Source: Octopus vulgaris (Eukaryota). Taken from it: a stretch of 64,000 nt of DNA. A program made the position numbers and the translations under genes. A model generated the notes under the pieces. The model did no database searches. It saw only the letters and a program-made list of their open reading frames with translations, and was not told the origin of the DNA. Within the stretch, counting starts at the first letter, position 1. Each line of letters opens with the position of its first letter. Below, in pieces: positions 11,084-62,930 of the stretch. The stretch is from positions 67,642,001 to 67,706,000 of the forward strand of contig OX597818.1 in the NCBI GenBank assembly GCA_951406725.2. Reading direction: 5' to 3'.

Positions 11084-12639
11084 GAGAGAGAGAGACAGAG
11101 AGTGAGAGAGAGATTTGTGTGTTTATAAACACACAAATTTAGCAATACAATAATATGAATGTATATATAGTACGATTCATATACGCATATACGCGTATAT
11201 CTGTTCGTATGTAAATGATTATTTGTATCTTGATACATGTGTGCGTTCGTCACTCTGTGCGTGTACGTATGTGTGTGTGGCTCTGCGTGTGTGTGTGTGT
11301 TAGTAAATATACAACTTGTGCGCCAATGTTAGCTGCACTAATAAACGGCAATGAAAATACACGTTGAAACGTTGGTGATGCGGATGATAATGTTTTTCTC
11401 TGCACTGATGCTGATGCTGCCGATGATGGTAACGAGAGGGGAGTGAGATGGTGATGACTATCATTATTATTTGTCTTTGTTGTGCCAATAGCTCTTCTAC
11501 TTGCTTCAGTTAATTACCAGTGTCCTAATTGCAAGTAATTGTACGCAACCAATTGAAATGTTTATTTTCGATCTTTCTTTTTTTTTTTTCCTGTTGATCT
11601 TCTCATTTTCTTTTCTTATTTTCCCCAACCAGCTTACAGTTCAATATTATTGCCATTGAAATAGGCCCTTCTTAGGTACTGGTTGCTCTTTGAAGTAAAA
11701 TTAGTTCAGGGGAGATTTAAACTGCGCTACGTACTTAATTGCTGTATGTTAACCTCAAGCAAATGCTTCAATACAACGTGTCTCACTTTTCGTAGATTAC
11801 AGCTTCGCTTGAGAAAATAGAAATTGCACATTCATTTCATGCGTCTTTCGTTGAAAACTTTTCTGGCCACCTCTGAACTCGCTCCATTTAATAGATGTCT
11901 ACTATTATGTGAACATAATATGGTGGTGAACTTGAAGAACCGTGAGCAGTCGGGACAAAACGTTTAGAGGCATTTTGTTCGTCTTTAAGTTCTGAGTTCG
12001 CATTCCTACCAATGTGTAATTTGCCTTTCGCTATTGCAAGTTCGATAGAATAAGGACAAGTTGAATTCTGAGGGAGATGTAATCGACTGAACCCCACTTC
12101 CAGAGCTTGCTGAATTTGAAACCTAACATTATAAGGTTTCATGGTAGTGGTGGTGCTGTTGTCGGGGGTGGGGGATGACATCACGATGATGATGATGATG
12201 ATATTTGCAACTTTCAGGTAATGTTTAAATTACTGATGAGAAATAGAAAGTTTGAGACTACTTCTAAAATTCTATGAAAAAAACATTACACAAAATTTTA
12301 TAAAATTGCCGCACAATTTACAAAGCTATAAATTATCCAAATCATAGGATTAAGGAATAAATTTGGAACCTATAATCTAAAGAATACTTATACTGTTTTA
12401 CTAAACTAGAATACATATATCAAATCTAAAAAATAACACCGGAAGGAATTCCCCTAAAAATACACAAACAAAACATATTGGCAATGTAGAAAACCAAAAA
12501 GAAAAATCAAAAGAAAAAGGAACCTACTAAAATAGTAAATACAAAGGCTGAAACAGTGATTATCAGACTCTCAATAACCGGTTATTCAAAATAAAACAAA
12601 ACAAAACACCCATAAAATACCTCCTTATTTAAAAATTTT

Positions 12640-13345
12640 AAACACGTTTATTCCTATGAACACAGGAAAAAACCTCTTTCAGATTTAGAATTTAACAGCT
12701 TCGAGAAAATAAAAACAAAAATAATTCCTCAGAACAAAGATTAAAGAATTTATTCCCAATCTTATAAACCCTAAAATGTTCCATTCAATAAAGAAGGGTT
12801 TTCTATTATCTTTATGACTGCAGATGTAATTACTAAAACTTGTAGATGAAGCCCTATTTTTGTTCCCAAAGGAATTGTAATGATTCGAAACCCATTCTTA
12901 ATATATTAGCAAAAGAACCAATATGAAAGTAATTATGAACCTCAGAAATGACTTTAGCTTGATAAACAACTTCTCTACGTTTTACATAAATTTCGAAATA
13001 AACAATTTTCTTTGTTTCTACAATCACAAAGAGAATTTCTGCCCCTACTTGAACCGTCAACAATGGAATCATTATTAAGCAAACACCTATCACCCTCATT
13101 ATTATCAAAACTTATATTAGAATCCAAACTATAACTATTTGAAGAACCCATAACATTGGCAGACTTGGCATTGATCTCGCTAACATTACCTATGATATCA
13201 CGAAGACAAAAACCAAATAATTTCCTTTCATTCATAGCTCGAGAAACCGGAAAAAGATAATTCTTATCGTTTCATTTTCGAATTAATTAGTCTTGGAAAC
13301 AATTTGTAGAATCTTTATTCGATTTGTACCAACATTGCATTAAAA
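12640..13345 (-). pseudogene. Penelope-like element 3' relic: RT thumb end, linker and GIY-YIG endonuclease
   Basis: Frameshifted minus-strand segments NVGTNRIKILQ, CDCRNKENCLFRNLCK, EVVYQAKV..YFHIGS, TSFSNYI...EWNIL, FNLCSEE and LLNSKSE..SCVHRNK. These match the CxCR..CPL.G.C...VYQA...YIG...C.LC..EK...LN.RSE...C.H pattern of invertebrate PLE GIY-YIG domains. Confidence 0.75.
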
Positions 13346-13523
13346 GATCGTCTATGACTATATATCTTTTCCTTTACTTATAATTTATTTATTACTTATA
13401 TCAATACTGAATATATAGTTTTTTTATATACTCTTTGCTTGGATTATAACAGCGGACTTGCATGTTTAGCATCCCTTTAAGGTTTTTGGCCCTCACTTCT
13501 TTTTATATATATATATATATATA

Positions 13524-13892
13524 CTAGCAGTATCGCCCGGCGTTGCTCAGGTTTGTAAGGGAAATAACTATAAAGCATTTTTAGAGAGTTATAGCCAAAA
13601 AATAGCCAAAAAATGGAAAAAAAATTATGGTAAATTTTTTTGAGAGTTAAAAAGGTCGAGTCGCGTCCCCTAGACAGTCTGTGGTTTGTGTTTCTGATTC
13701 TCGACCCCATGCCGAATTTATCGATTTTTTTCAGAACTGGGGGAACTTTTCAAAATTTTCGGTGCGTTAGTTTTGAATTATGACATTGGGCTATGTGTGT
13801 GTCAAGTTTCATCAGAATCGGTTGAAAGCGGTGGTCAGGGTGAGGGTACAACCAAACAGACACACAGAAACACACACAGACAAACTGCCGTT

Positions 13893-13900
<8 letters not shown>
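13524..13900 (-). mobile_element. Non-autonomous Helitron
   Basis: The minus-strand 3' end is a GC-rich hairpin (CCTGAGCAACGCCGGG) about 10 nt before a terminal CTAG. It is inserted in (TA)n with no TSD, and the opposite end fades into TATATATAAACGGCAG. Confidence 0.7.
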
Positions 13901-13959
<59 letters not shown>

Positions 13960-14094
13960 CTACAAGCATGCATTGAAGGAAACTTCTAACGGAATAATAC
14001 AAGGGAAAACATCGCCCACACGCTAATTCACACACATAAACATATACAATGACATACGTGCTCACATGCAGATATATACACACACACATATGCC

Positions 14095-14481
14095 TTATCT
14101 ATTCTAGGCACAAAGCCCAAAATTTATGGGGCGTGTTCAGTCAGTTTAATCGACTACAGTAGGTAACTGGTACTTAATTCATCGACCGCGAAAGGATGAA
14201 AGGCAAGGTCGACCTCGGCGGAATTTGAACTCAAAATGTAAAGGCATGAAATACATATTTCTTTACTACCCACAAGGGGTTAAATACAGAGAGAACAAAC
14301 AAGGAGAGACAAAAGGATTAAGTCGATTATATCGACCCCAGGGCGTAAGTGGTACTTATTTAATCGACCCGGAATGGATGAAAGGCAAAGTCGACATCGG
14401 TGGAATTTGAACTCAGAACCTAACGGCAGACGAAATACGGCTACGCATTTCGCCTGGCATGCTAACGTTTCTACCTGCTCG
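14095..14481 (-). mobile_element. Abundant tRNA-derived SINE (core GCCTTTCATCCTTTCGGGGTCGATAAATTAAGTACCAG), head-to-tail dimer
   Basis: Full unit at 14255-14481 plus a second unit starting at the internal GTATTTC. B-box-like GAGTTCAAATTCC. At least eight homologous copies occur in the window. Confidence 0.85.
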
Positions 14482-14910
14482 GCATCTTTACACACACGCA
14501 AATATGGAGGCCCACGATCGATTATTACACCACGAGCGCTTCCCATAGACGCAGTTATGTTATTCTCAGTGCGATCAATGTTAAACCAAGAAGTACAAAC
14601 CATCCAATATTTCGAAAGGTTATCATATAACACGACAGAATGCTATACAAATAAACGGCAACTAAGAATAGCGTAACATTGAATGGCCTATAAAGGTCTG
14701 TGAATTTTAAGCTATCGATTTATTGTTGGCAATGAAGAAGATAATGATTACTTGTCTAAGTGTCTGGTAGTTTCAGGAATTCCTGCACAAAGCATCGAAT
14801 ACGATCATTAGTTCTTGACAGGCTGTTCTGAAATCTAATATCCTTGGAGGCACTGATCCTAAACTCATCTAATAACTACCTCTTTTTGACTTATATACAT
14901 ATATATATAC

Positions 14911-14975
<65 letters not shown>

Positions 14976-15186
14976 CATATATATATATACATATACATAA
15001 TTGTAAGAATGTGTATATATATATATATGTTTATATATATGTATATATATATATATACAATATATATATATATATACATATACATAATTGTAAGTATGTG
15101 TATATATATGTATATATATATATATATATATATACATATACATAATTGTAATTATGTGTGTATATATATATATAAATAATTGTAAG

Positions 15187-15249
<63 letters not shown>

Positions 15250-15994
15250 TAAGAGAGAAACAAAAAGAGAGAGATTTGTTCTCACGTACATTGACATTTC
15301 CTAATATGTGTAGTGTATATTATATACATACATGCATATATATGTAAATATAGTTATCCATATATGGGTATGCATATGTGTGTGCGTGTGAGGGTGAGTG
15401 TGTGTGTGTTTGAGGTCATAATTCTCGAGGACATATACATTTATGCATTATCGTCTATTTTAGACAGTTGTAGACGCATATAGGAATGCGTAATGAATAT
15501 AATACAAATGTATCGGAATACTGATGTATAAATGAATGCATAACACATATATTCCGGCACTTCTATATAGAGCGGTAGATATATAAATATTCAAGTATGT
15601 AGATATGCATATACATATATATATATATATATAATTATAGTATAATCTGTTAGGAACTTGGGAGAGTACAGTATAAAGCTTGCCCACCCTCAAAATTACT
15701 CAATACTATATGGAAGCATTATTACATAGTTCCTGGTTTATGACAGGGTATTCTTCGAGTGGTCGAGTGCGAATATAAAATTCAAGAAATTTGAGTCAAC
15801 AACACGTGGTACGTTTGGACAGTTGTATTTTGAATCAGTACAATTGTTTCCACGCAACGTCGTTCTGCCGTAAAATACAGGTGTGTCTTCAAGTATATAT
15901 ATATATATATGTGTGTGTGTATATATATATATATATATGCACATATATGTATATATATATGCATGTATATATATGTGTATATATATATTTATAG

Positions 15995-16123
<129 letters not shown>

Positions 16124-16125
16124 TG

Positions 16126-16156
<31 letters not shown>

Positions 16157-16348
16157 GTAAGTATATATATATATGTAAATTATTATTACTATTATTATTG
16201 TTATTGTTATTATCATCATTAGACTACAGAACGAAAGGTTTATACCCGGTAGCTTACTGGTGCAGCACGATAGCTTTCAATGCTTGCCTATTTTTGCGTT
16301 GTCGCACATCTTCCATTTCCTCCTCCCATTAATCACACACACACACGC

Positions 16349-16414
<66 letters not shown>

Positions 16415-16415
<1 letters not shown>

Positions 16416-17370
16416 TCCTCCTCATCTCTCTCACAGCCGCTTGTCTTCCTCTATCTCTCTCTCTCTCTCTCTCACAGCCGGGCGACCACTTCCTTTCGCT
16501 TGCGGCCTCCTAACAGTGAACACGCTTTCTTCCTGCGCTCTTAAGAATCTTTCCTCGTCTGGGCCGAAAAAAGGCCCTCATTATTTGTTTTCTTGTTTGT
16601 TTTTATTTCTTGTACTGTATTTTTTTGTAATTTTATTTTTATTTTGTATTTTATTTTGTAATTTTATTTGTATCGTTTTTACGTTTTGTTTTTGTCACAT
16701 TTTTTCTTTTCTTGTTTTTAACCCTCTGTAAAGGATTTTTATTTATTTCTTGCGCAGGAAGGGCTAGTTCGACGAGTCGTGTTCTGTGCTCACCTTCGAA
16801 ACACGCATGGAGTCGTACTAGGGACAGCTGATGAAGGGGAATTTTCCTTGTGTTGTTTGTCTTGTACTCTGTTTTATCGTTGTTAAAAGAAGGTCCGTTT
16901 CCATGTTTGTTTTTACGTTATCGTTTCTAGTTGAGTTCTACGTCTATTTGTGGTGTCCTGTACTCACGTATATATATTTATATATGCATGTATATATACA
17001 TGTAGATGTAGGTACGTACATATATGTATGTATGTATGCATATATTTTATATATTACACTATATATATCCGTTTATCAATCCGCTTTGCAAGATTCCTGA
17101 TGTGTAATCATGCGTTAAACAGATATTGTTGTATTTCGGGATGTTCATTTATTTTTGGCCAAATAAACACATGCTGTATACATATATACCTTTTTAAACT
17201 CGTTTATTTTTGCTCTTATTCTATTATCTTGATTCATATCCATTGCCCGGACAATGGTCATGAGTGACAATAATAATAGAGGAACGGTAATAAACGAGTG
17301 AAGAAACAATATATAGTGCGGGTGTTTATTCGACAATTTCGCAAACAAATTGCCATCCCGACCTACAGCA
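16415..17370 (+). repeat. Interspersed repeat between (TA)n tracts, probably PLE-derived non-coding sequence
   Basis: Contains CCTTCGAAAC...GTC...CTGATGAAGGGG hammerhead-like motifs at 16794-16840 and T-rich blocks; no ORF. Confidence 0.4.
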
Positions 17371-17380
17371 ATATGTATAT

Positions 17381-17760
<380 letters not shown>

Positions 17761-18564
17761 AAAGCTAATAGTCTTTAACGATACGCTACTAGAATCCTTA
17801 TGCGAAAAAAGCTTCACCAGAATAGGATAAAGGGAGAATATTACAGTAATTGTAGTAACGAAATAGGAGGACAACCCAACTGCCAAGCGGAAGCGAATGA
17901 GACAAAGAAAAAAAATGATAATTTTTGAAAAGTGCAAAAGCTTATCAAACGAACACCGTATGGAGATATCTTCGTCTGGTTAAAACAAAAAAGTCACAAG
18001 ACTAATATAAGAACAGCAATTTACAGCACCATCTCTAAGGTATATAATAAACGGCATAGAAACCGTGATTAAAACTGTGAAATTTACAAAAATTCCACCT
18101 CCACTTCATTATCATATTTCACTCCCTATTTCAACTGAACGTGTTTGCCATTTATGACTATAATTGAACCATTTAAATAACAATCTTCATATATATACTT
18201 GCGTAATCATTACGCTACATCAGACGCTTCGCATTATCGATAAACAAACCAATACGATTATTTATTTTAGAGATCCATATTATCTGACTTCGAAAATGAT
18301 ATATCCAATCAAACGGTTTGCTTTGGGCGAGACAGACGGATTTAAATAAAATCATTCATTTATATTTACATATGCACATATATTTGCATGTCTGTGTCTC
18401 TGTTTGCAACGATGATTTTGTGTATGCATGTTATGCATGTGTCCATACGTATATGTGTGTATGTTTCTGTGTGTAGTATGTGTGTTTGTGCACGCATATA
18501 TATATGTTTGTATGTGTATGTTTCTGTCCCCATTCCTGCTCTGTCTGTCTAGCTCTCTCCAGCC

Positions 18565-18902
18565 AGGTAACCTTGTACCTCCTCTACAGCAAGACACCTG
18601 TTTTTGTCTCTCTGTCTTGCTATAAACTTTCATAATCTGATCACCTCCTGCAATGTCCCTTCCCCTCTCAAAAGATTTTTGTCTTGCTAGTTACTTGGTG
18701 ACCCTGTCAGTGCAGGTGCCACTTAAAAAGCATCCAGTCTACACTGTAAGGATATCCAGCTGCAAAAACCTTGCCAAATCTGACCTTACCTGTGCATGTG
18801 CCATGTAAAAAGCACTAAGTCCACTCTGCTGGGTGATTGATGTTAGGAAGGATACCCAACTGTAAAAATCCTGCCAAAACAGTCACAGGAGTCTGGTGCA
18901 GG

Positions 18903-18903
<1 letters not shown>
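18565..18903 (+). mobile_element. SINE 3' fragment with internal duplication
   Basis: Two related blocks GTGCCAC/TGTAAAAAGCA...GGATA(T/C)CCA(G/A)CTG(C/T)AAAAA...TGCCAAA; resembles a common cephalopod SINE body (from memory). Confidence 0.5.
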
Positions 18904-18953
<50 letters not shown>

Positions 18954-18960
18954 TAAATCT

Positions 18961-21252
18961 CTGAGCGAAGTATAAACAGTAGCTGCAAGACATCCTGAAG
19001 TATATTTGTCACTTAAATGTGGCTAACCCTTAAGGGTGGATGCTATTGTAGTTTGTTGCTCCAGGAGGACACCTCCTGCAGCTGGCTATTGACACACTTT
19101 CTGTGACTTATTAGTAATTGCAAAGGGAAGCCATCCTTCCTATCTTCAATCTGACATGATACACACGGACTCGAGTTTATCTTAGGCACAAGTCCTGAAT
19201 ACAAAGGGGACCTAGGCAAACATGCGGGAACAAAAGAACATATGAAAGAATGAATTAAATTACAATGACTATGAGACGGTTCTCTCGGTCCCACTCCGAG
19301 ACGAAACCGTGATTTCTTTTTTACAATTAAACGTTCTTACTGTATTTTCTTTTTTTTTCCTTTTTAGCGCGTTCTTTTTTTAGTTTTTTTATCGTTTTTT
19401 TTCTCTTTTTTCTTTAAACTTTTTAACAGTCTATTTTCCTTGTGTTTTTTTTTTATGAAGTACTAATTTTACTTATTTGTATTTAAATGTTCATAAAGGG
19501 TTTCAAATCTCCTTATTCCACGACCGGTGGGAGTTCGTCAAACTCAACTTCTACCCCCAGCGGCTCTATGAAAAGTTCCTGCATCTCTCTTTATCTATAA
19601 CTATTCCTTTAGTGTATTCCAGGTATTCTCCTGGCGGCTGCTTTACTCTTTTTACCGATTTATATTTTACAATCTTTTTCTCTATTTCTTTACTTTTGGA
19701 ATACCTGACCAAATGCCACTTATATCTCTTCCTTTTCACTTCTGCTTGCTTCGGCTCCCGTCCTGATCTGTTCGGGTGTGCAGAAACATCACAACCAATT
19801 TTATAAACACTTCCTCTTTCTCCCTGTTGTAATGCTGCTTTTTCCTGTGAGCCTTCTTTCACCATTGCTTCTGTTGGTGTTTCACACCTATTTCTATTTT
19901 CTTTCGTCACAATCTATTTTAGCCTTTTTTACTGTCTGGGGTAGAATTCACCCGTTCCTTTCTCTTCCTCCTGTTTACTACTGTGAAGGGTTCCTCCACT
20001 CTATCTGTCTCCTTTATTGTTACTACCTCCCCGGTATCGCTTTCTTCACTTCTCCTCTCCTCCTCACCTTCCTTCTCGGGACATCCCGCCTTTATGTGCC
20101 CTCCCCTGCCGCATAAGAAGCATGTTGGTGGTCCTCCCTCTACTGCTTTCGAAGTCCAGCGTCTTCCGGAAATACTACTTCCTCCGTAATAACATGCAAA
20201 ACTTCCAAAGATACCTGCATGGTCACTTCGAGGCTATATCCCTACCAATTGGCCTTCGGGGTCCTCGTTATCTTGAAGATCTCTACCCCATCTTTCATAT
20301 CGTGCATTATGGCAGCTACCAGCCATTCTTCATCGATTTCGAGCTGTACTCTTCCATCTCTGACACTGGCAACTCGTTTTCCACAGTACGTCGGAAGTAG
20401 TATCCATGTCGTCCTCGGTAACGGGTCCGTGGAGTGGTTTATGGCATCTTCTTCGTTGCCAAACCTTACTTCCACTGAGCCATACTTTTTTCCACGTGCA
20501 TAGAATGTGGTCAATTTTTTAAACATTTTCGAGACATTCCTCTATTTTTTCTGTTGGAGTGAACTCTATCTTGTTCGAGGACAGAGACAACATTCTGTAT
20601 ACTACCGTTCTCTTCGCTATGCTTTTCATCAGTTCTTCTGCGGGAATCAGCCCTAGACTAACTCCCTTCTTTTTTACAAATTTTCTCCCTTTCCTCCTCC
20701 TTCCCGCATCAATTTTCACCTCCTCCACCTCCAGGGTTCAGGCACTCATTCTTTGTATCGCTTCCGGTACGCAACTTTGTCCATTCTCCATCTCTCCTCC
20801 CTTCCGCACCTCTCCCGCAGACGGGGATTATACAGGTGCAAACGAAACAGCGACTGAAATTCAAGAATTTACACAATCCAACGAATCCTGGTTCACCTGC
20901 GCGGGGAAACCTACAACAAACACACAACATCAGTGTGTAACGATTCCAACTCACATCGGAGAAATCACCACCAACACCCATTAGTGACAATCACCGATTG
21001 CCGATGAAAAGTGGGTCCCCCTTGCAAATATATATCCTTTTTCCAGTGACGAAAAGTCACTGATATCGAAAAAGTTTAAACAAGCAATAATAACTTACTG
21101 ACCGAGGTATAAACAGTAGCTGCACGACATCGTGAAGTATATTTGTCACTCAAATGTGACTAACCCTTAAGGGTGGATGCTACTGCAGCTTGTAGCCCCA
21201 GGAGGAGTTTGCAAATACTAATAGGGCTCAGAAAGTGTGTCAATAGTCAGCT
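18961..21252 (-). mobile_element. ORF1/gag-only retroelement with 109-bp direct terminal repeats and an inverted 5' segment
   Basis: Direct repeats at 18961-19069 and 21098-21206 (11 mismatches counted by eye). 21208-21252 is the reverse complement of 19080-19124. A single decayed ORF lies inside. Confidence 0.75.
19513..20791 (-). pseudogene. Disrupted ORF1/gag-like nucleic-acid-binding protein (RRM-like region, CCHC zinc knuckle, K/E-rich tail)
   Basis: Joins ORFs 20519-20728, 20242-20526 and 19566-19910. Between them an alternative frame reads VEGGPPTCFLCGRGGHIKAGCPE (C-X2-C-X4-H-X4-C at 20081-20122). GSVEVRF is RRM-like. The layout is typical of L1/Tx1-type ORF1. Confidence 0.75.
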
Positions 21253-21665
21253 ATATTCTATAATTTACAACAGGTTTTATAAGAACGCTTACCTAGGACG
21301 TAATCCAAGATACAGTTACATATATTTTACACTTTTGAAAGCCTGATATGAAACCGATGAAGAGTATGGTAATAATTTAAACTATAATGAAATTGTAATG
21401 AAGTCTAATATATTCGTTGGGCGTTTTCAATTTAATGTTTTCTGCATTTCTAATAATAATTTATCTCTCACTTTCTATCTCTGTCTCTCTCTCTATTTAT
21501 ATCTCTTTCTTTCTCCCTTTCTCTCTTTCTCTCTCTCTCCCTCCCTCCTCGAAGCAGAGGAACCCAGCTAATGTAGCTTAGGTCACGAGCCTGACGAGCT
21601 GCGTTCCTGTGCAGAATCCACGAGACTTTAAGTTGGGTAGGACCAAAGCAAACTGTTTTTATTTA

Positions 21666-21706
<41 letters not shown>

Positions 21707-22023
21707 TAATAATAACAACAAAAACAATAATAATAATAATAATAATAATGAAAATAATAATACATATACATTAAAATTCGTATATGTGGATGCATGTATA
21801 AGCATATGTATGTATTTATATGTATGTGTATAAGTATGGATTTTTGTGTTTGCACACATGCAGAGAAAGCTGTGCTCACACACACAAAGACATGCACACG
21901 CACATATACACACATACACACGCACACACATATATACATATATATAGGTTTATTTATTGCTGGAGATACAGTTGCGTAGGAAGATGTGTCTACAGATACA
22001 TTGATAGATATATAAGCATTTTC

Positions 22024-22074
<51 letters not shown>

Positions 22075-22929
22075 CCTATAAATAATATTATGTACATATA
22101 TGTATAAATATGTATACATACAGTATGTGTGTATATATATATATATACACGCACACTTATATATAGACATATATGTTATACATGCAATACACACACACAT
22201 ATATATATATTGCATGTACAACATATATGTCTATATATAAGTGTGTGTGTATGTGTATATATATATATGTGTGTGTGTATGTATGTGTGTTTGTGCTTAA
22301 CGTATATATATATATATACATTTTCAGGTATGTTCGACTTATACCTGTTTTATCCTTTAGCATAATATTTAGTGTGAACTAAGTGGTAATAAATGTTAGA
22401 TGGCAATAATAATTTCCAGGTAACATAATGATTCTATTTCATAAAAATTTATTGCGAGTGCACGAGGATATATTTTCTAGAACGTTCTTCTGAGTGATAA
22501 TAAGATTTGATTTTATGAGAGCTTCAATCACATAAATACATGGGTGGGTGATGTAAATATATAAAGATGCGTTATATGACGATTCCTATTGTGTGTTTGA
22601 TTGTTTGTGAATATAGCAGAAAACATAAACCATGGTATTCCTGAAGTGATAACACATAGCTGCGTGTGTATATGCAAACATTCAGACAGCCAGACAGCCA
22701 CACAGGCAGACGCACACTCACACGCATTTAGATATGTAAATGCATGCACACGCACACGTGCATACATATTCATAGCTTGATGCATGGATGAATAAAAAAG
22801 ATAGATTGCTTAAAAGAGAAATATAGAAAGAGAAATATAGACACAAATCTGTTATATAGCTGTATAATTCTGAAGGTATATAAGTATTCATATCTATGTC
22901 GGTTTCCATTTATCTTTATTTCCCTATGT

Positions 22930-23420
<491 letters not shown>

Positions 23421-23486
23421 GTCTATGCATCCATTTATCAATCGATCTACCCCTTTCTCTCTCTCCTCCTCCTCTTTCTCTCTCTC

Positions 23487-23528
<42 letters not shown>

Positions 23529-23950
23529 CATACATACACACACTTATATGCATATACTGCTACAAATATAGAAATATATGTATGTTTTATCCAAAATGTA
23601 GACGAACACAATTCCTCCAAGTAATCAGCGCGTGTGAATTCAGCATTGTTTAGATATATGTACTATCCATTTTCATATATAAATCTCCACTGGTATTTTG
23701 TGTGTACATGTGTGTTTGCTTGTGTTGTGTTTGTGTTTATATGTGTTAGTATGTGAGTGTGTGTTTTTCATGTGCTGATGTGTATGTTAACAGTAAGTTA
23801 GATGGAGGCATTTAGCTCCAGAAATATTTATATTAGCAGCGTCTACCGGAAAATTCCGATAGGAAAATAACCCCATCTCTACCGAGGTTTCAAATAAGAA
23901 AAGATTTCATGTTTTAAAGCCATTGGGAAGTATGAATAATAAAGTTTGAT

Positions 23951-24100
23951 ACATTATTTACGTTTGACGAATATTTGTCCTCATCTTGCTAGTTGTTAAT
24001 ACAACGTTTCGGCTGATAAAACCTCCAGCCTTCAAAGAGGTGTCTCAAGGAAATTTCTAACCTGGGTTATTATTCCTAAGGTATTTTTCGATGTTTTTAA

Positions 24101-24183
<83 letters not shown>

Positions 24184-24413
24184 GTAATATTATTATAATT
24201 ATTATTATTCAGATCACTGCCTGGAATCGATTTCGGAATCTTGGGGTTAGTAGCCCGCGCTTTTAACCACTACGCCATATGCTATTAAGCCTGGAGGGTA
24301 TATCAGCCGAAACGTTGCGTTAACAACAAACAAGATGAGGACAAATATATGTCAAATGTAAATGATGTAAATAATGCAAATAATTCCTCATCTCTTAAAT
24401 ATAGAACTGTGTT
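23951..24413 (-). mobile_element. tRNA-head/(AAT)n/hammerhead retroposon, copy A (minus-strand unit plus inverted plus-strand 3' part)
   Basis: Head TGGCGTAGTGGTTAAAAGCGCGGGCTACTAACCCC at 24209-24278 (-), (AAT)n, and a degenerate hammerhead at 23996-24046 (-). The plus-strand arm 24287-24409 ends TAAATATAGAACTG. Perfect 12-bp TSD ATAAAGTTTGAT at 23939-23950 and 24414-24425. Confidence 0.85.
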
Positions 24414-24532
24414 ATAAAGTTTGATGAATGCAATTTATGATATCATTTCTACTCCATGGCAGCAAATTGCTTTAACAAACCTCCGGTGACTTTTCACGTA
24501 TTATGTTAACAATGATTTTGTCATGACTACTT

Positions 24533-24571
<39 letters not shown>

Positions 24572-25914
24572 TATTTATATTTATACACAAGGTATTGTAT
24601 TATAAGTTCAGCAAAATTTAGATTCAGATGAATATGGTACTTATGTCAATGGCACCAGAATTGTGTATGGTATTATCCATATAAATCCTTGCTTATTTTG
24701 ATTATATATATATATATATATACATATATACTTATATACTCATATGAGCATGTATAGATGTATGTATGTATTGTATATGTATGCGTTTATGTATATATAA
24801 ATATAAAATACTGTGTCGTATTTTGCATGTATGTGTGTGTGGGTGTGCGTATGTATGTTTATGCGTGTGTGTTCGTGTCTGTATGCTTGTGTGTGTGTGT
24901 GTGTATGTATATAATAGGACATATGTAGGTAGAAGTGGATTAGAATATACGAGTATTTTAAGATTATATGTATATTTATGCGTGTGTCTATACGATTGTG
25001 TGTACTTGCGTATATGGATATGGTTATATGTGCACAGTTGCACCTAAACGTTGTATCCATTCACAGTTAGACGGTGATGAGAGGAACAACCACACACCCA
25101 CACATATATATATATGTGTGTGCGTCTATACAAACATATATGTGTGTACGTATACAATCTTCAACAAAGTAAGTCATGTACACAACTTGGACGGACACAT
25201 ACCAATACACGGACATGCGTTCACATACACATACACATGTACACACTCTCACAGACGCGTCTGCCCATTTTCCTAGACACTCACATACATACGTAGCACA
25301 TGAGTACAAACATACATACATACCTACATATGGGCATACACACGTACGTACGCACGTACATGTACGCACACACATACATGGGCACATGCATACGTGCGCG
25401 TATACATACATACGCACATGCGTACGTATGTGCATACACACATACATACATACATACATACGTACGTACATACATACATACATACATACATACACACATA
25501 CATACGTATATATATTTAACCTGAACTAACTAGATGTAGGGAGGAAAAAAAAACAAGTAATATTAAAACAAAAGTGCTGTGATATAGAGATAAATGTCTG
25601 ATAATAGGTTTTAGGGTTTTGTTTTGGGGGTGAGGGTCGTAAATCACTTCCTAGTTTCGGCGAGGGAGGTTGAAATTTGATATTATTGTGATGGGTGGTC
25701 AGTCTACATCTATCCATCACTACAGGTTTATAGCTTTAAGTCTATAGTGTGTATGTGCGTGCATATACACACACATACATACATACATATATATATATAC
25801 ATACATACACAGGCGTATGTACGTACATAATACATACATGCACGCATGCGTGTATACATAACTGCACACACACATACGTACATATATATTACGAACTAAC
25901 TGTTTCTTTCTCAG

Positions 25915-26115
25915 AAGCAGCACGGATTTTTGTCAGTGAACAGGTCGCGGATATTAGCGACGAAAATATTTTGACAAATTAAACTTAAATGTTGAAGTGA
26001 ATCGAACGGCTTTTGTGTGTTTCTTAAATGGCTTATAAACACCTTCCACTCTGCAATCGTTTTCGTTCCAGCGCACGATCTCAGATCAAATCACTTGCTA
26101 TGCGAGTAAATCTCC

Positions 26116-26118
<3 letters not shown>
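25915..26118. repeat. Unclassified interspersed repeat fragment abutting (TA)n
   Basis: Complex sequence block ending ATCTCCGTA between microsatellites; recognised only from memory as a common octopus repeat. Confidence 0.3.
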
Positions 26119-26165
<47 letters not shown>

Positions 26166-26494
26166 CAAAACACTTTATATATTTGTTTCATCGGAACCGT
26201 TTGCAAAAGTGGTACAGAAAATAATCGGCTGCAAGTATGCCCGGTTAAATATGAAATATTTATCATTGATCAGAATGGGCAGCGAGAAAATTTAGAATTT
26301 TACGAAGAAACAGAATAAGTAAAATAACAAAGATTTAGTTTGCTTGTCTCTGTTAGCCCTGGATGATAAGAATGACTCAAATGCCTAGCAGACTTCCTCC
26401 TTTGTCAGTCTGGCAGGTGACCTTAACTACGAGGCCTAAGATAGAACGTTCAATTAGGTGTAGTTGGTATGGGAGAAACACTAGCGATGGAAGA

Positions 26495-27460
26495 GACTAT
26501 TATTACGATTAAAAGCCATAAGCCAAACTCTTGTTCTAACCCCAAATGCCGGGAGTGCTTCGAACGTTGTTTAGCAGCGCAGCACCAACCGTAACATGGT
26601 TTAAAGTAAATAACAGTCGGCGTCGAGTAAGATTTGATTTAGATCATTTTTACCTGTCTGTATCAAGGGAGCTTCTATACAAAGCCCTAAATTTCGCTAC
26701 AACTTACTATAATATTAGAGGTGAGGATACATGAATACACAGGCATGTCAAAAAAAAAACTCTACTTTTCAACAAAGGGCCGTCCTGCGTCAGGAGAACT
26801 GTCGTAGAAGGCCCCTTTGTCACAGCGATGGGCGCATATGAAAGTGTTGAAGAATGAAGGATTTGGATTTTTTCCTGAATTTACTTGCAATAAAATTCTC
26901 TTCAAATAACCATACCTTCTACAGAGGCGATACCTTCAAAATATGGAGAGAAATATACCGAAACATTTTCGACAGGCTTAAAACGCATATCACCAACACC
27001 AACAATGCCTTTGCTCTCAATGTCATAATAGAAACCAACCTGAGGATGGTGCATTTCCCTGATATTAGACTTGGAATACGGGAGATTTTACGTCCTTAGG
27101 AGGCCATACAAGAAGCAGAAGTACGTCAACTAAACTTTCCCTCATCCAATCAGAACGGTTAGAAAACTGGTGAAAGGAGTCAGCAGGAAAATCTCCAACC
27201 CATCTTCAAGTAAAGAGATTTTGACGCTGCTCTCCTGTGCGACAAAGAGGCCCTGGCTGTGACTGGATTTAAAAATCGGTTTAGTTATCCGCCAGATCTT
27301 AACTCCTCCAAGACAAAACGACACAGGAAGGTGTTGTGATTCTCCCGTTTCACCTGAAGCAGAAAAATGGTATGAGTGGCATTTTCTTTATAAATATTTT
27401 CCCTGTACGAATAAGGTTAGTCAAGTTTTTAATAGGCACACCTTCAGTGTTAGTTAGGCC
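26495..27460 (+). pseudogene. Decayed Penelope-like reverse transcriptase
   Basis: Collinear degenerate motifs: ITIKSHKPN..NPKCR (~ITLKDHK.NF..NPKCR), RFDLDHFYLSVSRELLYKALNFA (~FDI..FYPSI), FVTAMGAYESVE (~FDVTMGSYDGAE), FYRGDTF (~LYRDDGL), VHFPDIRL (~VNFLDVTL), and VFNRHTFSVS. Confidence 0.8.
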
Positions 27461-37344: not shown

Positions 37345-38188
37345 CTAACAGAAATACCCGGCGTTGCACGGGTTAGAGAGAATAATAAAATTTATAAACG
37401 CAGTCTAGATTACTCAGATCTCAACGGCTAGCAGCTGAGACACCAGCTTTCTACATTAATAATCCTCCAACCCATGCTAAAGAATGTTTGCAACTCATAC
37501 ATGTATATTAAAGTTAATACACGTAATACGAAAACCAAACTACAGTTACAGATTATAAAAAATGAAAGGTCGATTTTGCTGATTCATTTGACAGATGTAG
37601 TAGAGAGCAAATGGGATCATATATCTGACCTTGGATCTTGAAAGTTTTTTCATGAATCCTGGCCCAATTAAATCTCTTGTGGCTCCAAATGATGTCATCT
37701 GCATTGCAGCGTTGTATTGTCTAATTTTGTTTTGGAAGTTCCTGGAATCTTTGTCACTTTGTGACAACAGTTTCTTCAAAGTCTCTTCCAATACTGCAGC
37801 ACAGGGAAGGTGACTCTCTAGGCTACTTCCTCGACGGGAACGGACGACGCAGACTTTAATTTCAAAAGTGAAGTGTTTAGTGAAAGCCTTTATGAGAGAA
37901 AATTCATTTTGAAGACATGAAATTCCCTGCTTGCTGACGAGCGAACCGATCTCGTGTATACACTGACCGTTCTCGGACTCAACTTCAACCGATCAAAGGG
38001 AAATAACTCCATCACGCTTAGATGACTCGCTTAGAAGGGAAGTTTTTACAACTTGGTAAGCAAAGCTGTATTCTTACGCCCAGAAGTATAGATATCGAAT
38101 GTAAAAGGACAACAGATGTTACGAGTCGCTTATACTGCTTAGGGAAAAATAGGTATGAAACCAACGACTACATTAAATATATATATAT

Positions 38189-44027: not shown

Positions 44028-45043
<1,016 letters not shown>

Positions 45044-45211
45044 CATTATTATTATTGAAATCATTGCCTGGAATTAAACTCGGAGTCTTGTGGTTAGTAG
45101 CCCACGTTCTTAACCACGTGCATAAGGTGTAGTGATTATTAAGAGTTTGGTTCCGAGTTCGATTCCAACCAGTGACCTTTGCATCATTGTGCCTAAATCT
45201 CATCACAACTT

Positions 45212-47494: not shown

Positions 47495-47713
47495 GAACAT
47501 GGTTTCAAAATTTAACTCAAGGTCTGCAAATTCGGGGAATGGAATAAATCAATTACATCGACCCAACTACTCAACTAGTTTTTATTTTGTTAACCCCTAA
47601 AGGAAGAGAAATAAAGTCGATCTTGGTAGCATTTGAACTCAGAACAGAAATACAGACGAAATGCTGCTATGCAGTTCTCCCGGCGCGGTAGCAACTCTGT
47701 CAGTTAACAGCCA
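47495..47713 (-). mobile_element. Diverged copy of the abundant tRNA-derived SINE
   Basis: TTACATCGACCC...AAAGTCGA...ATTTGAACTCAGAAC...GACGAAATGC is homologous to 57285-57518. Confidence 0.7.
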
Positions 47714-56072: not shown

Positions 56073-57101
56073 CGATCAACAATAGTTGTGACAAGTTAAA
56101 TATTTTCTTGAGAAGTCTTAATAAGACGTCAGGATGTTTTTGTGAGTTATCAGTAAAGAGTGGATGCTTTTTAATACAGAATCTTCTGTATCTTCCATAT
56201 AGTTAACCAAATAAAATTGCATCTTTTGCCTTTATTTGCGTTCAGATAAAAAGCATCTTACGAGGTTGTTTTATTTACTCTTTGCTTAGACATTTTTTTT
56301 TAAATCTCTCTTTTTCATTATAATACTGCGATTAAAACTTCCCATATATTTCTATTTAGCATGTTCTGCCCACATCGGGGCATTTCCCCCTCAGTCTTAT
56401 TGAATACTTAGGAATACATTTACATTTATACTTTATTTTGAGTTAGTTCTGTTTCCGTTCGCCTCAGTTACTTTATATCTAATTATGCTCGAAACTAAAC
56501 GCCATTTTGATACAATAAATTCTGGTCCGAAATTCATCCGTGAATAACGTAAATAGCCAAGAATATGATAGAATATTTTCACAAGAGATAGAATTGATTT
56601 AAGAATTCCGTTAAGTGATGTATTGCAGATAGAGATGAAAGATATATTAAATATTTTAAACTTAATATCAATAGCGTATCTCCGAAATATTTAATATTTA
56701 GAGTCTGTCATAGACAGTTGGAAGCCTACCAAAGATGCTATCGGATCCGTGAATTTCCTAGGATCTCAAGAAATGTTTGCATAGAATTTAAAAGTTGACA
56801 TTTACAGTCGGTCTTTATAACTTTTGAGCAAAATCTTTTGAGAAACCGTTTTAATACCCAAATGGTTCGCTTTTACTTTTCTCACACTAATTCCAGATAA
56901 GTATCTTCTAAGAGTTGCCATACACAACACTTTGTAAGCTGCTGGCCTTCCTACTGCTGCCGCAAAATGCAACTGGTTTTGCAGGCTATAGTGGCCATCT
57001 TGTATTGTTCCTATTCTTGTCTTTTATTTCCAGATCGAATCTAAATAAGACGATGCATGAGTAAAGGACATTCTGGCAGTGATCATCGCTTCTACTTAAC
57101 T

Positions 57102-57518
57102 TATTTCTTTACTACCCACAAGGGGCTAAACACAGAGGGGATTAACAAGGACAGACAAACGGATTAAGCCGATTACATCGACCCCAGTGCGTAACTGGTA
57201 CTTTATATATCGACCCCGAAGGGATGAAAGGCAAAGTCAACCTCGGAGGAATTTGAACTCAGAACGTAACGGCAGACGAAATACCTATTTCTTTACTACC
57301 CACAAGGGGCTAAACACAGAGTGAACAAACAAGGACAGACACACGGATTAAGTCGATTACATCGATCCCAGTGCGAAACTGGTACTTAATTTATCGACCC
57401 CGAAAAGATGAAAGGCAAAGTCGACCTCGGCGAAATTTGAACTCAGAACGCAGCCGCAGACGAAATACCGCTAAGCATTTCGGCCGGCGTGCTAACCTTT
57501 CTGCCAGCTCCTCGCCGC
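57102..57518 (-). mobile_element. Abundant tRNA-derived SINE, head-to-tail dimer
   Basis: Full unit at 57285-57518 and a headless unit at 57102-57284 starting at GTATTTC; both end GGGTAGTAAAGAAATA. Confidence 0.9.
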
Positions 57519-58346
57519 TTTAACTATCCCTTCTGATTAACCATCATTAAGACCCCACCCTTCGAAATATCATTTATTTTTAAAGGGCGTGACTTTTAAA
57601 GTGTGACTTGTAGGAGACGTTACTGCTATTGCTAGCATGAATAGCAAACACACGTAGACCCACTCCAGATAGGGCCAACCCAGCTCTGTGCTCGTTCCAC
57701 TTGTTACTGGTACCAGTATAAAGATTTTGCATAGTTTACCTTTAAATATCTGTCCACTGCTTTGACTGTGTTAGCGCCGTTGTTTACCAACGCAGTGTAG
57801 AGCATATCTACGTGATGCAATATTTTCCACCTGATCATGTTATAATATATAATCATATGAGATCGTATGAGATCGCCTTTTATCAATTTTCATATAGCTT
57901 TTAGAGAATAAACACTGATTTGTACTGCGATCTAACGGACTTCAATCTCAGCTTTTAAACATGGAGGTTTTGAAGCTAGTTTTGTGATTCATGATGTTCT
58001 GTTGTTATTTTTCCTACTCTGGCACAGTATTAATCATCAAAGGGTTTTTCCTTGCTTTCTGCCTTGCATAATTTTCTGAAATACACTGTTTCATATTTTC
58101 CGTTCCTTTTTATTCTGCCTTTTAAAAGATTAGCTTTGTACTCTTTTTCGTTCTATGCTTCAGTCGATGGGTTACATTCTTTAGTCTTGTTATTGTTGTT
58201 ATGGATACAGGAAGAGCGAATCTTTAATAAGTGTGATTCGCGCAACACGTTGTTCTTCGTTCGATCCCACCGCCTGGTACCTTTAGCAAGTGTCATTTTA
58301 CCATAGTTTCATAACACTGTAAGCTTTGATAATGTAATGGAACAAA

Positions 58347-58565
58347 GGCGGCGAGCTGGCAGAAATGTTAGCCCACCGGGCGAGATACTTAGCGGTATTA
58401 CGTTCTGAGTTCAAATTCCCCCGAGGTCGACTTTGCCTTTCATCCTTTCGGGGTCGATTAAATAAGTACCAGTTACGCACTGGGGTCGATTTAATCGACT
58501 TAATCCGTTTGTCTGTCCTTGTTTGTCCTGTCTGTGTTTAGCCCCTTGTGGGGAGTAAAGAAATA
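58347..58565 (+). mobile_element. Abundant tRNA-derived SINE, monomer with a 17-bp TSD
   Basis: GGCGGCGAGCTGGCAGAAATGTTAGC...GAGTTCAAATTCC...GTAAAGAAATA; TSD GATAATGTAA(T/A)GGAACA at 58328-58344 and 58566-58582. Confidence 0.92.
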
Positions 58566-59796
58566 GATAATGTAAAGGAACAGGTTGAAAATACTTGGGA
58601 GGCGGTCCATAGAAATGACCCAGGGATTCAAAAGTTCAGCTTTGTCGAATGCGACATAACACTGACTCTCTTTCAGAATAGATTAAGTTTTCTCATGTCT
58701 ACGGGATACTCAGTCACCCCACACCATATTTCACCGCATAGGTAAATCAGTTGAGCGAAGACCCCAATACACGTCTACGAAATTGTCGGAGAGTCTGTCT
58801 TCAACGTCGTGCTCCTATTCGTCGTCCTCGTCGTCGTCATCTTTATCATCTCCATCATCATCGTCGTCGTCGCCTTCCTCATCATTATGAAGTTATTGTT
58901 GTTGTTAGTAGAGGAACCACTAGAATCTTGTTAGCAGTACATTTGGTCATCTCCGAAACCATGAATGGCAAAGCCCACTTAGGCGGGATTAGAACCGAAA
59001 CGGCACAGAGTCGGATTGAATATTGAATGATGTTTCATCCAACACTTTATCGAGTCTGCCAGTTTGCCGCATGTGTACCAATGCCAGCTACACTAATGTC
59101 GAATAGTTTCAGTTATACATGCGTATATGTATGTATTTATGTATTTATATATGTAGTTACGTATGTATATATGTTTGTATGTATGTGTTCCTTTTTATGT
59201 ACGTGTATTTATTTCCATAGCACTAGCGTCACGAAATCGTCCGTTAATATATTTTGGGTTCAACGTGTTTTTCTTACCCCAGGGGAGGTGCCATTGTCTT
59301 TCTCTGAATACTCCCGAATATTCCCACCAGTAATATATTGTGTCACTTGAATCTAATTTACTCTCTTCCACTATCCCCCACCCCCACCCCGTTCTATGAA
59401 CCTACTCAAGTTTTAAATGAAAAGAAATTATTATACATAATATTAATCACAATAATGACTATTATTAGCGGAACGTTCCGTGATGAACTGAAAGGAAGAT
59501 AACAATAACAGATTAAATTGACAAAACAATGGGAAATAATTGGTGAATACGAAGCAATACGGAGTAATACGGAATAATACGAAGTAAATTACTTGCAAAG
59601 TTACATAATTTACTTTTAAGCATCAAACTAGACGAGAAAGTTTGCAGAGTGTCAGAGTGTTGTCGCTGGTTTGCTTCAAGCTATCCATTGATAGTGATTG
59701 GAACGTGTTCAGAGATGAGACAATTGAGAAGACAATTGAAAAGTTGCGAAACAACCTAAGAACAAAAGGCGTGAAATATATGTTTGTTTGTGTGTG

Positions 59797-61337: not shown

Positions 61338-61385
61338 TAGACTTGTTCATCTTCAAATGGGATACAAGCAGCTTATTAGTGGTGC

Positions 61386-61503
61386 ATTGCCTTTCATCTT
61401 TTCGGGGTCGATAAATTAAGTACCAGTGAAATTCTGTGGTCAATGTAATCGACTAGTCCCCTCCTGCGAAACCTCAGGCCTTGTGCCTATAACAGAAAGG
61501 ATT
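61386..61503 (+). mobile_element. SINE fragment (core plus older-type tail)
   Basis: TTGCCTTTCATCTTTTCGGGGTCGATAAATTAAGTACCAG...GGCCTTGTGCCTATAACAGAAAGGATT. Confidence 0.75.
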
Positions 61504-62503: not shown

Positions 62504-62527
62504 GATGTGGAGATCTAGTAGAAATGA

Positions 62528-62876
62528 TAGCACGCCTGGCGAAATGCTTAGAGGTATTCCGGCTGTCTCTACGTTCTAAGTTCAAATATCACCAGGATTG
62601 ATTTTGTCCTTCATCCTTTCGGGCTCGTTAAATTAATTACCTGTTATGCACTGGGGTCGATGTAATCGACTAGTCCTCTCCCCTCCAAAATGTCAATTTC
62701 GTCTGTCGTTACGTTCTGAGTTCAAATTCCGCCGAGGTCGGCTTTGCCTTTCATCCTTTCGGGGTCGATAAATAAAGTACCAGTTTCGCACTGGGGTGGA
62801 TGTAATCGACTTAATCCGTTTGTCTGTCCTTGTTTGTCCCCTCTATGTTTAGCCCCTTGTGGGTAGTAAAGAAATA
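62528..62876 (+). mobile_element. Abundant tRNA-derived SINE dimer (older unit followed by a younger headless unit)
   Basis: The second unit starts ATTTCGTCTGTCGTTACG at 62696 and ends GTAAAGAAATA. Confidence 0.85.
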
Positions 62877-62930
62877 TATATTATTATTATTGTTGTTGTT
62901 GTTGTTGTTGTTATTATCATTATCATTATT

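Follow-up and report, generated by a model that had tools for sequence, protein, structure and literature searches.

The subject of this analysis is an element of about 2.3 kb on the minus strand of a 64-kb window of Octopus vulgaris DNA, the whole stretch that was analysed, where it occupies positions 18961..21252; a single copy was examined. It has a complete ORF1-type gene (ORF, open reading frame) with no reverse transcriptase (RT), flanked by a truncated and partly inverted duplicate of its own 3' end. Along the minus strand the order is an inverted copy of a segment X (21252-21208), one copy of a repeat A (21206-21098), the 5' untranslated region (UTR), the ORF, an A-rich tract and a unique 3' block. 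Segment X itself (19124-19080) follows, then 10 nt, the other copy of repeat A (19069-18961), 9 nt and a (TA)23.5 tract. An earlier note, written from the letters alone, had described the repeat, the inverted piece, a disrupted ORF, an A-rich 3' UTR and (TA)n, and this anatomy was confirmed. The layout is real and unusual, but its status as a family is unproven from one copy. The features are as follows.

21208..21252, plus strand: left end of the element; inverted copy (X') of the 3'-block segment X, matching the reverse complement of 19124-19080 at 40/45 positions.
21098..21206, minus strand: 5' copy of the 109-bp repeat A, resembling a pseudo-long terminal repeat (pLTR); it starts at the axis of the 3'-block palindrome and abuts the body without a tail.
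20911..21098, minus strand: predicted 188-nt 5'-UTR intron, with donor, branch-like and acceptor motifs.
20792..20910, minus strand: remaining 5' UTR.
19483..20791, minus strand: broken ORF1-like gene of about 436 codons.
20150..20650, minus strand: two tandem RRM-fold domains with approximate bounds, from a profile match (iE 1e-49) and the model of relative P0092.
20081..20122, minus strand: single CCHC zinc knuckle (PF00098, E 0.0065, below the curated cut-off).
19483..19715, minus strand: conserved C-terminal alpha/beta domain without a Pfam name, from profile and TBLASTN matches.
19320..19479, minus strand: A-rich 3'-UTR tract, 62% A by base composition.
19125..19319, minus strand: part of the 3' block without a 5' counterpart; contains a purine tract (19147-19134) followed by TG.
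19080..19124, minus strand: segment X, the source of the inverted 5' piece.
19058..19082, minus strand: 25-nt palindrome or hairpin straddling the start of repeat A (10/11 pairs, 3-nt loop).
18961..19069, minus strand: 3' copy of repeat A, with no poly(A) after it; right end of the element.
18905..18951, no strand: (TA)23.5 microsatellite, read as target and not as tail; absent behind the 5' repeat copy.

Upstream of the element, a GC-richer unique stretch lies amid microsatellites at 21545-21650.

The two copies of repeat A differ at 11 of 109 nt (98/109 identical). Self-BLAST of 18801-21500 against the window returned two pairs, one direct (120 nt, 87.5%) and the other inverted (45 nt, 88.9%). 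They score 148 and 59.9 bits, whereas the highest scores in 60 dinucleotide shuffles were 28.3 and 33.7, respectively. Taken together, the duplicated pieces differ at 17 of 155 aligned positions, which corresponds to a Jukes-Cantor distance of 0.119. At the rate taken from PMC13282606, this gives a rough insertion age of 16 million years, if the copies were identical at insertion.

Profiles of A and X (nhmmer) each matched only two places in the 64 kb, the next best match having an E of 0.48, whereas another repeat family in the same window gives 5-15 self-hits at several sites. Because no third copy of A or X was found in the 64 kb, an independent SINE (short interspersed element) is an unlikely source of the repeat. 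A wider version of this idea is chance assembly, with A/X as an independent SINE or miniature inverted-repeat transposable element on either side of an ORF1 pseudogene, or with an ORF1 retrocopy inside a non-coding element. SINEs do make up 11.6% of the O. vulgaris genome (PMC13282606), and an A-rich tract follows the stop codon. However, A and X occur nowhere else in the window, the two A copies are co-oriented and 2.1 kb apart (a chance of ~0.03 by our rough estimate), and no shared word longer than 7 nt is present as a target-site duplication (TSD) around the ORF cassette. Chance assembly is therefore held to be very improbable. Three other candidates were considered. A KolobokP element was rejected, as its direct repeats are 450-660 bp and carry their own terminal inverted repeats (TIRs) (PMC9587614). 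A TIR transposon bounded by X' and X was rejected because it would enclose one copy of repeat A and leave the other outside. A long TSD of the R9-like kind leaves the inverted piece unexplained.

Neither oligo(A) nor (TA)n separates the 5' repeat from the body. Since no tail joins the two, the (TA)n microsatellite is more readily taken for the target than for a tail, and (TA)n is listed as a target of Octopus Naiads, a group of Penelope-like elements (PLEs), in the supplement of PMC8557442. No TSD longer than a 5-nt ATATA match was found at the element ends. The PLE layout is described as a partial tandem pLTR with an adjacent inverted piece (PMC8557442; PMC8969392). The element has the first of these, a partial tandem of its own 3' end, and an inverted piece of the 3' block lies next to it.

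A stem comparable to the palindrome at 19058-19082 occurred in 7/500 shuffles of the 360-nt block, and the 5' copy of the repeat begins at its axis. Pen2 and Pen3a carry a palindrome at the pLTR's 5' end (PMC3846280). Folding of the 3' block as a whole is unremarkable (z -1.26). The best of six short folds is the antisense 3' repeat (z -2.36, 4/200 shuffles); its 5' twin reaches only z -0.47, so no conserved RNA structure is claimed. Within repeat A there is also a perfect 12-bp palindrome around TTAA (~19027-19038 and ~21164-21175), which together with an adjacent 5-6-5 inverted repeat forms a three-way junction in the predicted folds of both A copies.

A GTAAGT splice-donor motif begins at the last base of the 5' repeat A. 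This hexamer occurs 18 times in 128 kb, and its score in a donor matrix is reached by 362/7034 GT sites (0.0028 per nt). A branch-like CTGAT lies at 20933 and an acceptor AG at 20911, with an alternative at 20897, 165-188 nt downstream of the donor. These motifs alone predict a 188-nt intron in the 5' UTR. In Chlamys-3 a 5'-UTR intron spans the boundary between pLTR and body, and Penelope has an intron in the 5' UTR (PMC8557442). The splice-donor and palindrome traits were both found post hoc, and their probabilities are uncorrected for looking.

The ORF runs from an ATG at 20791 to a stop codon ending at 19483. The earlier note was right that it is disrupted, although its length of ~425 codons falls short of the ~436 measured. 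There are at least four in-frame stops (near 20740, 20521, 20244 and 19515) and at least four frame changes (near 20490-20530, 20150-20175, 19920 and 19585), with the reading spread across three frames. The CCHC motif reported before was found again at 20122-20081, and this weak zinc knuckle is the only Pfam signal in the ORF. A sequence search of the Protein Data Bank returned only zinc knuckles and low-complexity stretches.

A HMMER scan with the middle piece of the ORF gave 164 clusters at E<=0.001, the best at 1.4e-25 with 50% identity. The window ORF is matched by 147 of 152 relatives, 34 of them in more than one frame, and its pieces are collinear in 14 longer relatives. Its N-terminal piece matches the family profile with 98% probability. 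The four records with names come from Octopus sinensis and O. bimaculoides; three are labelled 'uncharacterized' and one has an unrelated kinase label. The alignments omit P0044, P0065, P0095, P0127 and P0143, which are chimeric or spurious, and some short fragments. The CCHC motif is present in 17/150 relatives, most relatives being fragments. The ten long relatives heading the alignment share 17-53% identity in their open RRM cores (45 pairs, with a median of 28%), which is compatible with a coding function kept for a long time. Searches of bacterial and archaeal contigs for stray copies gave 0 matches to a 23-nt motif and confirmed 0/600 candidate stretches, as expected for a eukaryotic element.

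Fragments of the ORF1 family are spliced into host-like gene models in P0044, P0127 and P0157 (WD40, astacin-ShK and a coiled-coil isoform X3), which appear to be exonisation or annotation artefacts. The N-terminus of one named Octopus record also matches a repeat at seven places in the window, and together with the named records this points to an octopus host.

A C-terminal domain of ~70 residues is common to seven relatives (P0006, P0014, P0032, P0086, P0092, P0123 and P0156) and is present in the window ORF. A two-sequence profile matched it at iE 1.3e-4 and a seven-sequence profile at 0.02, and TBLASTN against a 650-nt stretch gave E 2e-5 and 0.002. A five-sequence profile of more distant relatives had no match in the C-terminal region of the window ORF. 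The domain reaches the natural C-terminus of a relative; therefore, the gene is complete and not a truncated polyprotein. The domain has no Pfam or Atlas family (best Atlas score 0.76) and is weakly ferredoxin/ACT-like, matching ACT/HisG_C-like folds at TM 0.5-0.58.

The fold was taken from relative P0092, which is 30-39% identical to the window ORF in three pieces. Its AlphaFold model, built from 126 sequences, has a mean pLDDT of 67, about 90 in the core and above 80 at residues 431-490 in the C-terminal domain. The model gave 62 matches to tandem-RRM proteins at E<=0.001, the best at 7e-5, and it aligns with the La RRM at Z 9.6 (rmsd 2.6, 82 aligned). RRM proteins also lead the list in the viral structure library BFVD, and no capsid fold is among the matches listed for the model, those from BFVD included; this is evidence of absence from these lists only. 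The modelled fold thus supports a type I ORF1 protein (ORF1p) of the kind found in long interspersed elements (LINEs), with the order RRM-RRM-CCHC and a small C-terminal domain; type I ORF1p is defined by RRM and CCHC (PMC5203782).

The earlier note had called the protein L1/Tx1-like. The LINE type I assignment stands, but L1/Tx1 descent in particular is only a lead. The ZCCHC3 RBD1/RBD2 cluster ranked fifth in Atlas with a score of 0.90, which shuffled proteins reach in 4-10 of 100 cases, and the ZCCHC3 families PF23057 and PF23058, as well as DUF4283, were not among the 25 of 33 Pfam families listed for 48 relatives.

The type I ORF1p raises the possibility that the element is an ORF1-only derivative of a LINE with an apurinic/apyrimidinic endonuclease and RT (APE-RT), similar to HAL1 or HeT-A and mobilised by its parent. 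Its ends would then come from a second, 5'-truncated and twin-primed copy, or from the 3' end of an upstream copy serving as promoter. The protein architecture, the ZCCHC3 lead, the A-rich 3' UTR and the precedents of HAL1 and HeT-A agree with this. A short deletion at the junction is a feature of twin priming. The geometry of the inversion is identical to that of twin priming as described for L1, where inversions occur in ~30% of recent insertions (PMC2912911). If twin priming made the inversion, the template would already have had X upstream of the body, which suggests a tandem transcript or a second RNA. However, neither the 3' end nor the junction of repeat and body has a poly(A) or repeat tail, there is no TSD beyond the 5-nt ATATA and no remnant of the ORF2 C-terminus in the 3' block, and a splice donor is retained at the boundary. 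By the features that define LINEs, the element has the type I ORF1p and lacks the APE-RT ORF2, the 3' poly(A) or short-repeat tail and the TSD, its A-rich tract being internal. A LINE derivative is considered unlikely.

No Pfam match to an RT, integrase or endonuclease was found at E<=0.01 in the six frames of 12001-19602 and 20801-26802. The flank scan gave 2 chance Pfam matches among 18 translations, none of them to an RT, integrase or nuclease. These scans of ~7 kb around the element bear out the claim that it encodes no such enzyme. The ORF is followed by no ORF2 remnant and the flanks and UTRs hold no enzyme domain, so at this locus the element does not continue into an ORF2. RT or endonuclease Pfam domains were found in 0/30 relatives scanned, and a regular-expression search for RT, APE and GIY motifs gave one match among 152 relatives, a false one inside the RRM region. 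No protein of a relative extends into the repeats or UTRs (5 chance matches, E 0.015-0.048). Word-indexed homologue searches gave 0/148 candidates with the RRM piece, 4/8000 with one alignment and 0/7995 longer proteins with another, and they are weak on fused ORF1-RT forms. The missing enzymes of the relatives say little about other copies: ORF2 tends to be a protein of its own, and the searches that looked for longer forms are insensitive.

These results bear on a further explanation, in which the element arose as a one-off from an autonomous parent with two ORFs (a PLE such as Chlamys-2_cBra, or a LINE that has terminal repeats) whose RT gene was lost at or just before insertion. In its favour, the analysis covered a single locus, a PLE is known that has a zf-CCHC ORF upstream, a deletion junction could lie concealed in the A-rich tract, and a separate ORF2 is invisible to protein searches. 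However, no remnant of an RT, APE or GIY-YIG domain flanks the A-rich tract on either side, and the results from the relatives count weakly against it. It is probably incorrect, and slightly more so than descent from a LINE.

The earlier note had also stated that there are no TG...CA ends. This does not hold for the 3' block, which can be read as TG (19133)...CA (18962); its statement that no primer-binding site (PBS) was recognised does hold, as nothing like one follows the 5' repeat. The element might therefore be a gag-only element of the long terminal repeat (LTR) type, as in TR-GAG, with the 172-bp TG...CA block as a 3' LTR whose 5' twin was later rearranged. It might also be a non-autonomous DIRS-type element with X and the next 13 nt as an internal complementary region. 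The TG at 19133 stands directly behind a tract of 13/14 purines, a combination with 43 occurrences in 128 kb and an expectation of ~0.01 within 30 nt, and the CA at 18962 closes the block. X is complementary to the 5' end (40/45), and the 13 nt that follow it agree with the repeat's 3' end at 9/13 (12/1960 background 13-mers; ~0.04). However, the 5' repeat is followed by a splice-donor motif and not by TGG, the TGG check having been made without comparison to a host tRNA set; the window has no tRNA genes. There is no 4-6 bp TSD, the modelled core is RRM-fold, and the 5' copy is inverted in part, incomplete and without its first 9 nt in either orientation. The 9/13 match is better explained by a local hairpin. 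In addition, the repeats form one direct and one 45-nt inverted pair and include no B1/B2 pair; DIRS elements are defined by inverted terminal repeats or by split direct repeats of the form A1..B1-A2-B2 (PMC8969392). The LTR and DIRS readings are disfavoured because neither explains the whole layout as simply, and they are regarded as improbable.

Membership of autonomous PLEs, LINEs, LTR elements and DIRS elements was rejected by tests of their defining features. In the case of autonomous PLEs, neither flanks nor UTRs contain an RT/GIY-YIG and the only ORF is ORF1-like. The best explanation, given here tentatively and at somewhat less than even confidence, is a decayed non-autonomous ORF1-only retroposon that was copied in trans by target-primed reverse transcription, most likely by the RT/GIY-YIG enzyme of a PLE. 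This is favoured because a partial tandem of the 3' end abuts the body without oligo(A), next to an inverted piece of the 3' block, because the boundary donor parallels the introns of Chlamys-3 and Penelope and the palindrome parallels those of Pen2 and Pen3a, and because the ORF is complete to its C-terminus, no RT is nearby and (TA)n is the Octopus Naiad target. The earlier note had proposed a trans-mobilised, non-autonomous, PLE-like element; the PLE-like ends hold, and the boundary donor, the palindrome and the tail-less body junction add to its case. By analogy, the element would work like a non-autonomous PLE carrying a LINE ORF1, while its membership of the non-autonomous PLEs is unproven.

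Under the trans-mobilised retroposon model, transcription would start in the upstream repeat. The 5'-UTR intron would open at the boundary of repeat and body, and the unspliced RNA would be the one copied. The ORF1 protein would package and chaperone the element RNA. The borrowed enzyme would nick at or near the (TA)n tract, copy the RNA from its 3' end and run on into a second 3' end, by a tandem transcript or a template jump, to give the 5' repeat. The other target strand would prime inside segment X, which may have produced the 45-nt inversion. The copy would then have decayed neutrally for roughly 16 million years. The A-rich tract at 19479-19320 is possibly the old poly(A) of a captured ORF1 transcript.

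Several observations weigh against this model. Only a single copy was seen, and no partner RT element was found within ~7 kb or among three Octopus Naiad consensuses, whose 3' ends look unrelated by eye. None of five element motifs (0/5) occurs in the supplement of PMC8557442, which contains data on Naiad, Chlamys and Hydra. A type I ORF1p is usually a component of APE-RT LINEs (PMC5203782), and 13 L1-Tx1 families are active in O. vulgaris (PMC13282606). The (TA)n is on the 3' side only, and the element has no 30-40 bp tail. The inverted piece is without the terminal 120 nt carried by a canonical inverted pLTR; a remnant of these was sought in the flank and none was found, 384/500 shuffles scoring equally well. 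The inversion geometry, with its outer end at the breakpoint and a short junction deletion, equals that of L1 twin priming. The purine tract with TG...CA permits an LTR-like reading, and the intron is a prediction whose significance is post hoc. Finally, no hammerhead was found in the repeats, the 11 Rfam matches at E<=5 including no ribozyme and none near the gathering score. The sole CTGANGA of the hammerhead core lies inside the ORF, and a hairpin at ~19275-19310 resembling half a hammerhead was rejected, as the core is absent. Canonical PLEs carry a hammerhead, but Naiad and most Chlamys elements are without one (PMC8557442).

Other repeats in the window include the 3' part of a LINE ORF2 at 44243-44917 on the minus strand (zf-RVT, E 0.00076, then a PD-(D/E)xK-like nuclease stretch). 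It adjoins (ATT)45 at 44922-45056 and looks 5'-truncated beside a (TAA)n tract; we take it to belong to the Dong/R4 clade. A 148-aa open frame at 37546-37992 on the minus strand has only a chance Pfam match and presumably resembles the N-terminal part of a Helitron Rep/helicase. An abundant SINE-like family with 6-15 self-hits each is present at 14093-14489, 47534-47703, 57099-57516, 58344-58569, 61384-61500 and 62509-62882, with a 184-bp tandem pair at 57102-57469. In the O. bimaculoides gene model P0156 the family has been exonised at the N-terminus.

A broader proposal is that octopus genomes hold a long-lived and diversified ORF1-only clade in Penelope-type ends, moved by a PLE RT/endonuclease and possibly bipartite. 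This is doubtful on present evidence. If it is true, the clade would be a chimera of two retrotransposon subclasses. Its ORF1-only partner would provide a ribonucleoprotein-forming protein, which PLEs with their single ORF are without; HeT-A plays this role for TART, though at telomeres. Should the layout recur in other copies, Penelope-type ends can carry a LINE ORF1 and maintain it under selection. The family would then be a natural test of which cis sequence PLE enzymes recognise and how introns are kept, and of a trans-supplied RNA chaperone for single-ORF retrotransposons. A large unannotated octopus protein family, now 'uncharacterized' genes, would also be named as transposon ORF1s. If the element instead arose by a single deletion, or is an ordinary half-LINE beside a twin-primed neighbour, it is relevant to repeat annotation alone. 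O. vulgaris has 31 recently active PLE families, and the curated repeat library of the same study could already contain the family of the element described here (PMC13282606).

Each part of the element has a precedent among known systems, and none was found for the combination. No publication on an ORF1-only element with PLE-type ends was found in a search whose coverage left subscription papers and Repbase Reports largely outside. Two general statements of the earlier note proved too strong. It held that ORF1-only LINE derivatives lack terminal repeats, but the promoter-to-promoter transcription unit of HeT-A, which is ORF1-only, is LTR-like (PMC5537684). It also held that canonical PLEs have no gag, but the PLE Chlamys-2_cBra has a zf-CCHC ORF upstream, and pLTRs are found in non-autonomous PLEs such as MRC1 of the Chlamys group (PMC8557442).

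The element resembles the Naiad and Chlamys PLEs in its partial tandem pLTR, adjacent 5' inversion, predicted boundary intron and (TA)n flank, in having no canonical hammerhead and no clear TSD, and in the zf-CCHC ORF of one Chlamys family. It differs from them in having no RT/GIY-YIG, in its double-RRM LINE-type ORF1 and in an inverted piece without the terminal part, and it has no sequence in common with the three Octopus Naiad consensuses.

Plant TR-GAG elements carry a structural gene only, between terminal repeats. Unlike these, the octopus element has no recognisable PBS or TSD, and its modelled core is RRM-fold. The protein is like the type I ORF1p of L1/Tx1 LINEs and the ZCCHC3-like proteins in its tandem RRM folds followed by a CCHC; it differs from them in having one knuckle, an extra conserved C-terminal domain and no ORF2. 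HAL1 is likewise ORF1-only and non-autonomous (PMC5753468). The octopus element, unlike HAL1, has a terminal repeat and an inversion and no 3' poly(A). The ORF1 of HAL1, a mammalian element, is of the coiled-coil type II, and HAL1 ends in a poly(A) tail.

With HeT-A the element shares an ORF1/Gag as its only gene and the need, at this locus, for an RT in trans; in HeT-A the 3' end of the upstream copy acts as promoter. It differs in having no telomere restriction, oligo(A) or long arrays, being a single copy amid microsatellites and other repeats. A closer parallel to the framing is found in Adineta vaga, where pLTRs alone can mobilise unrelated intron-containing genes in trans (PMC3846280). 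[quoted passage not shown]

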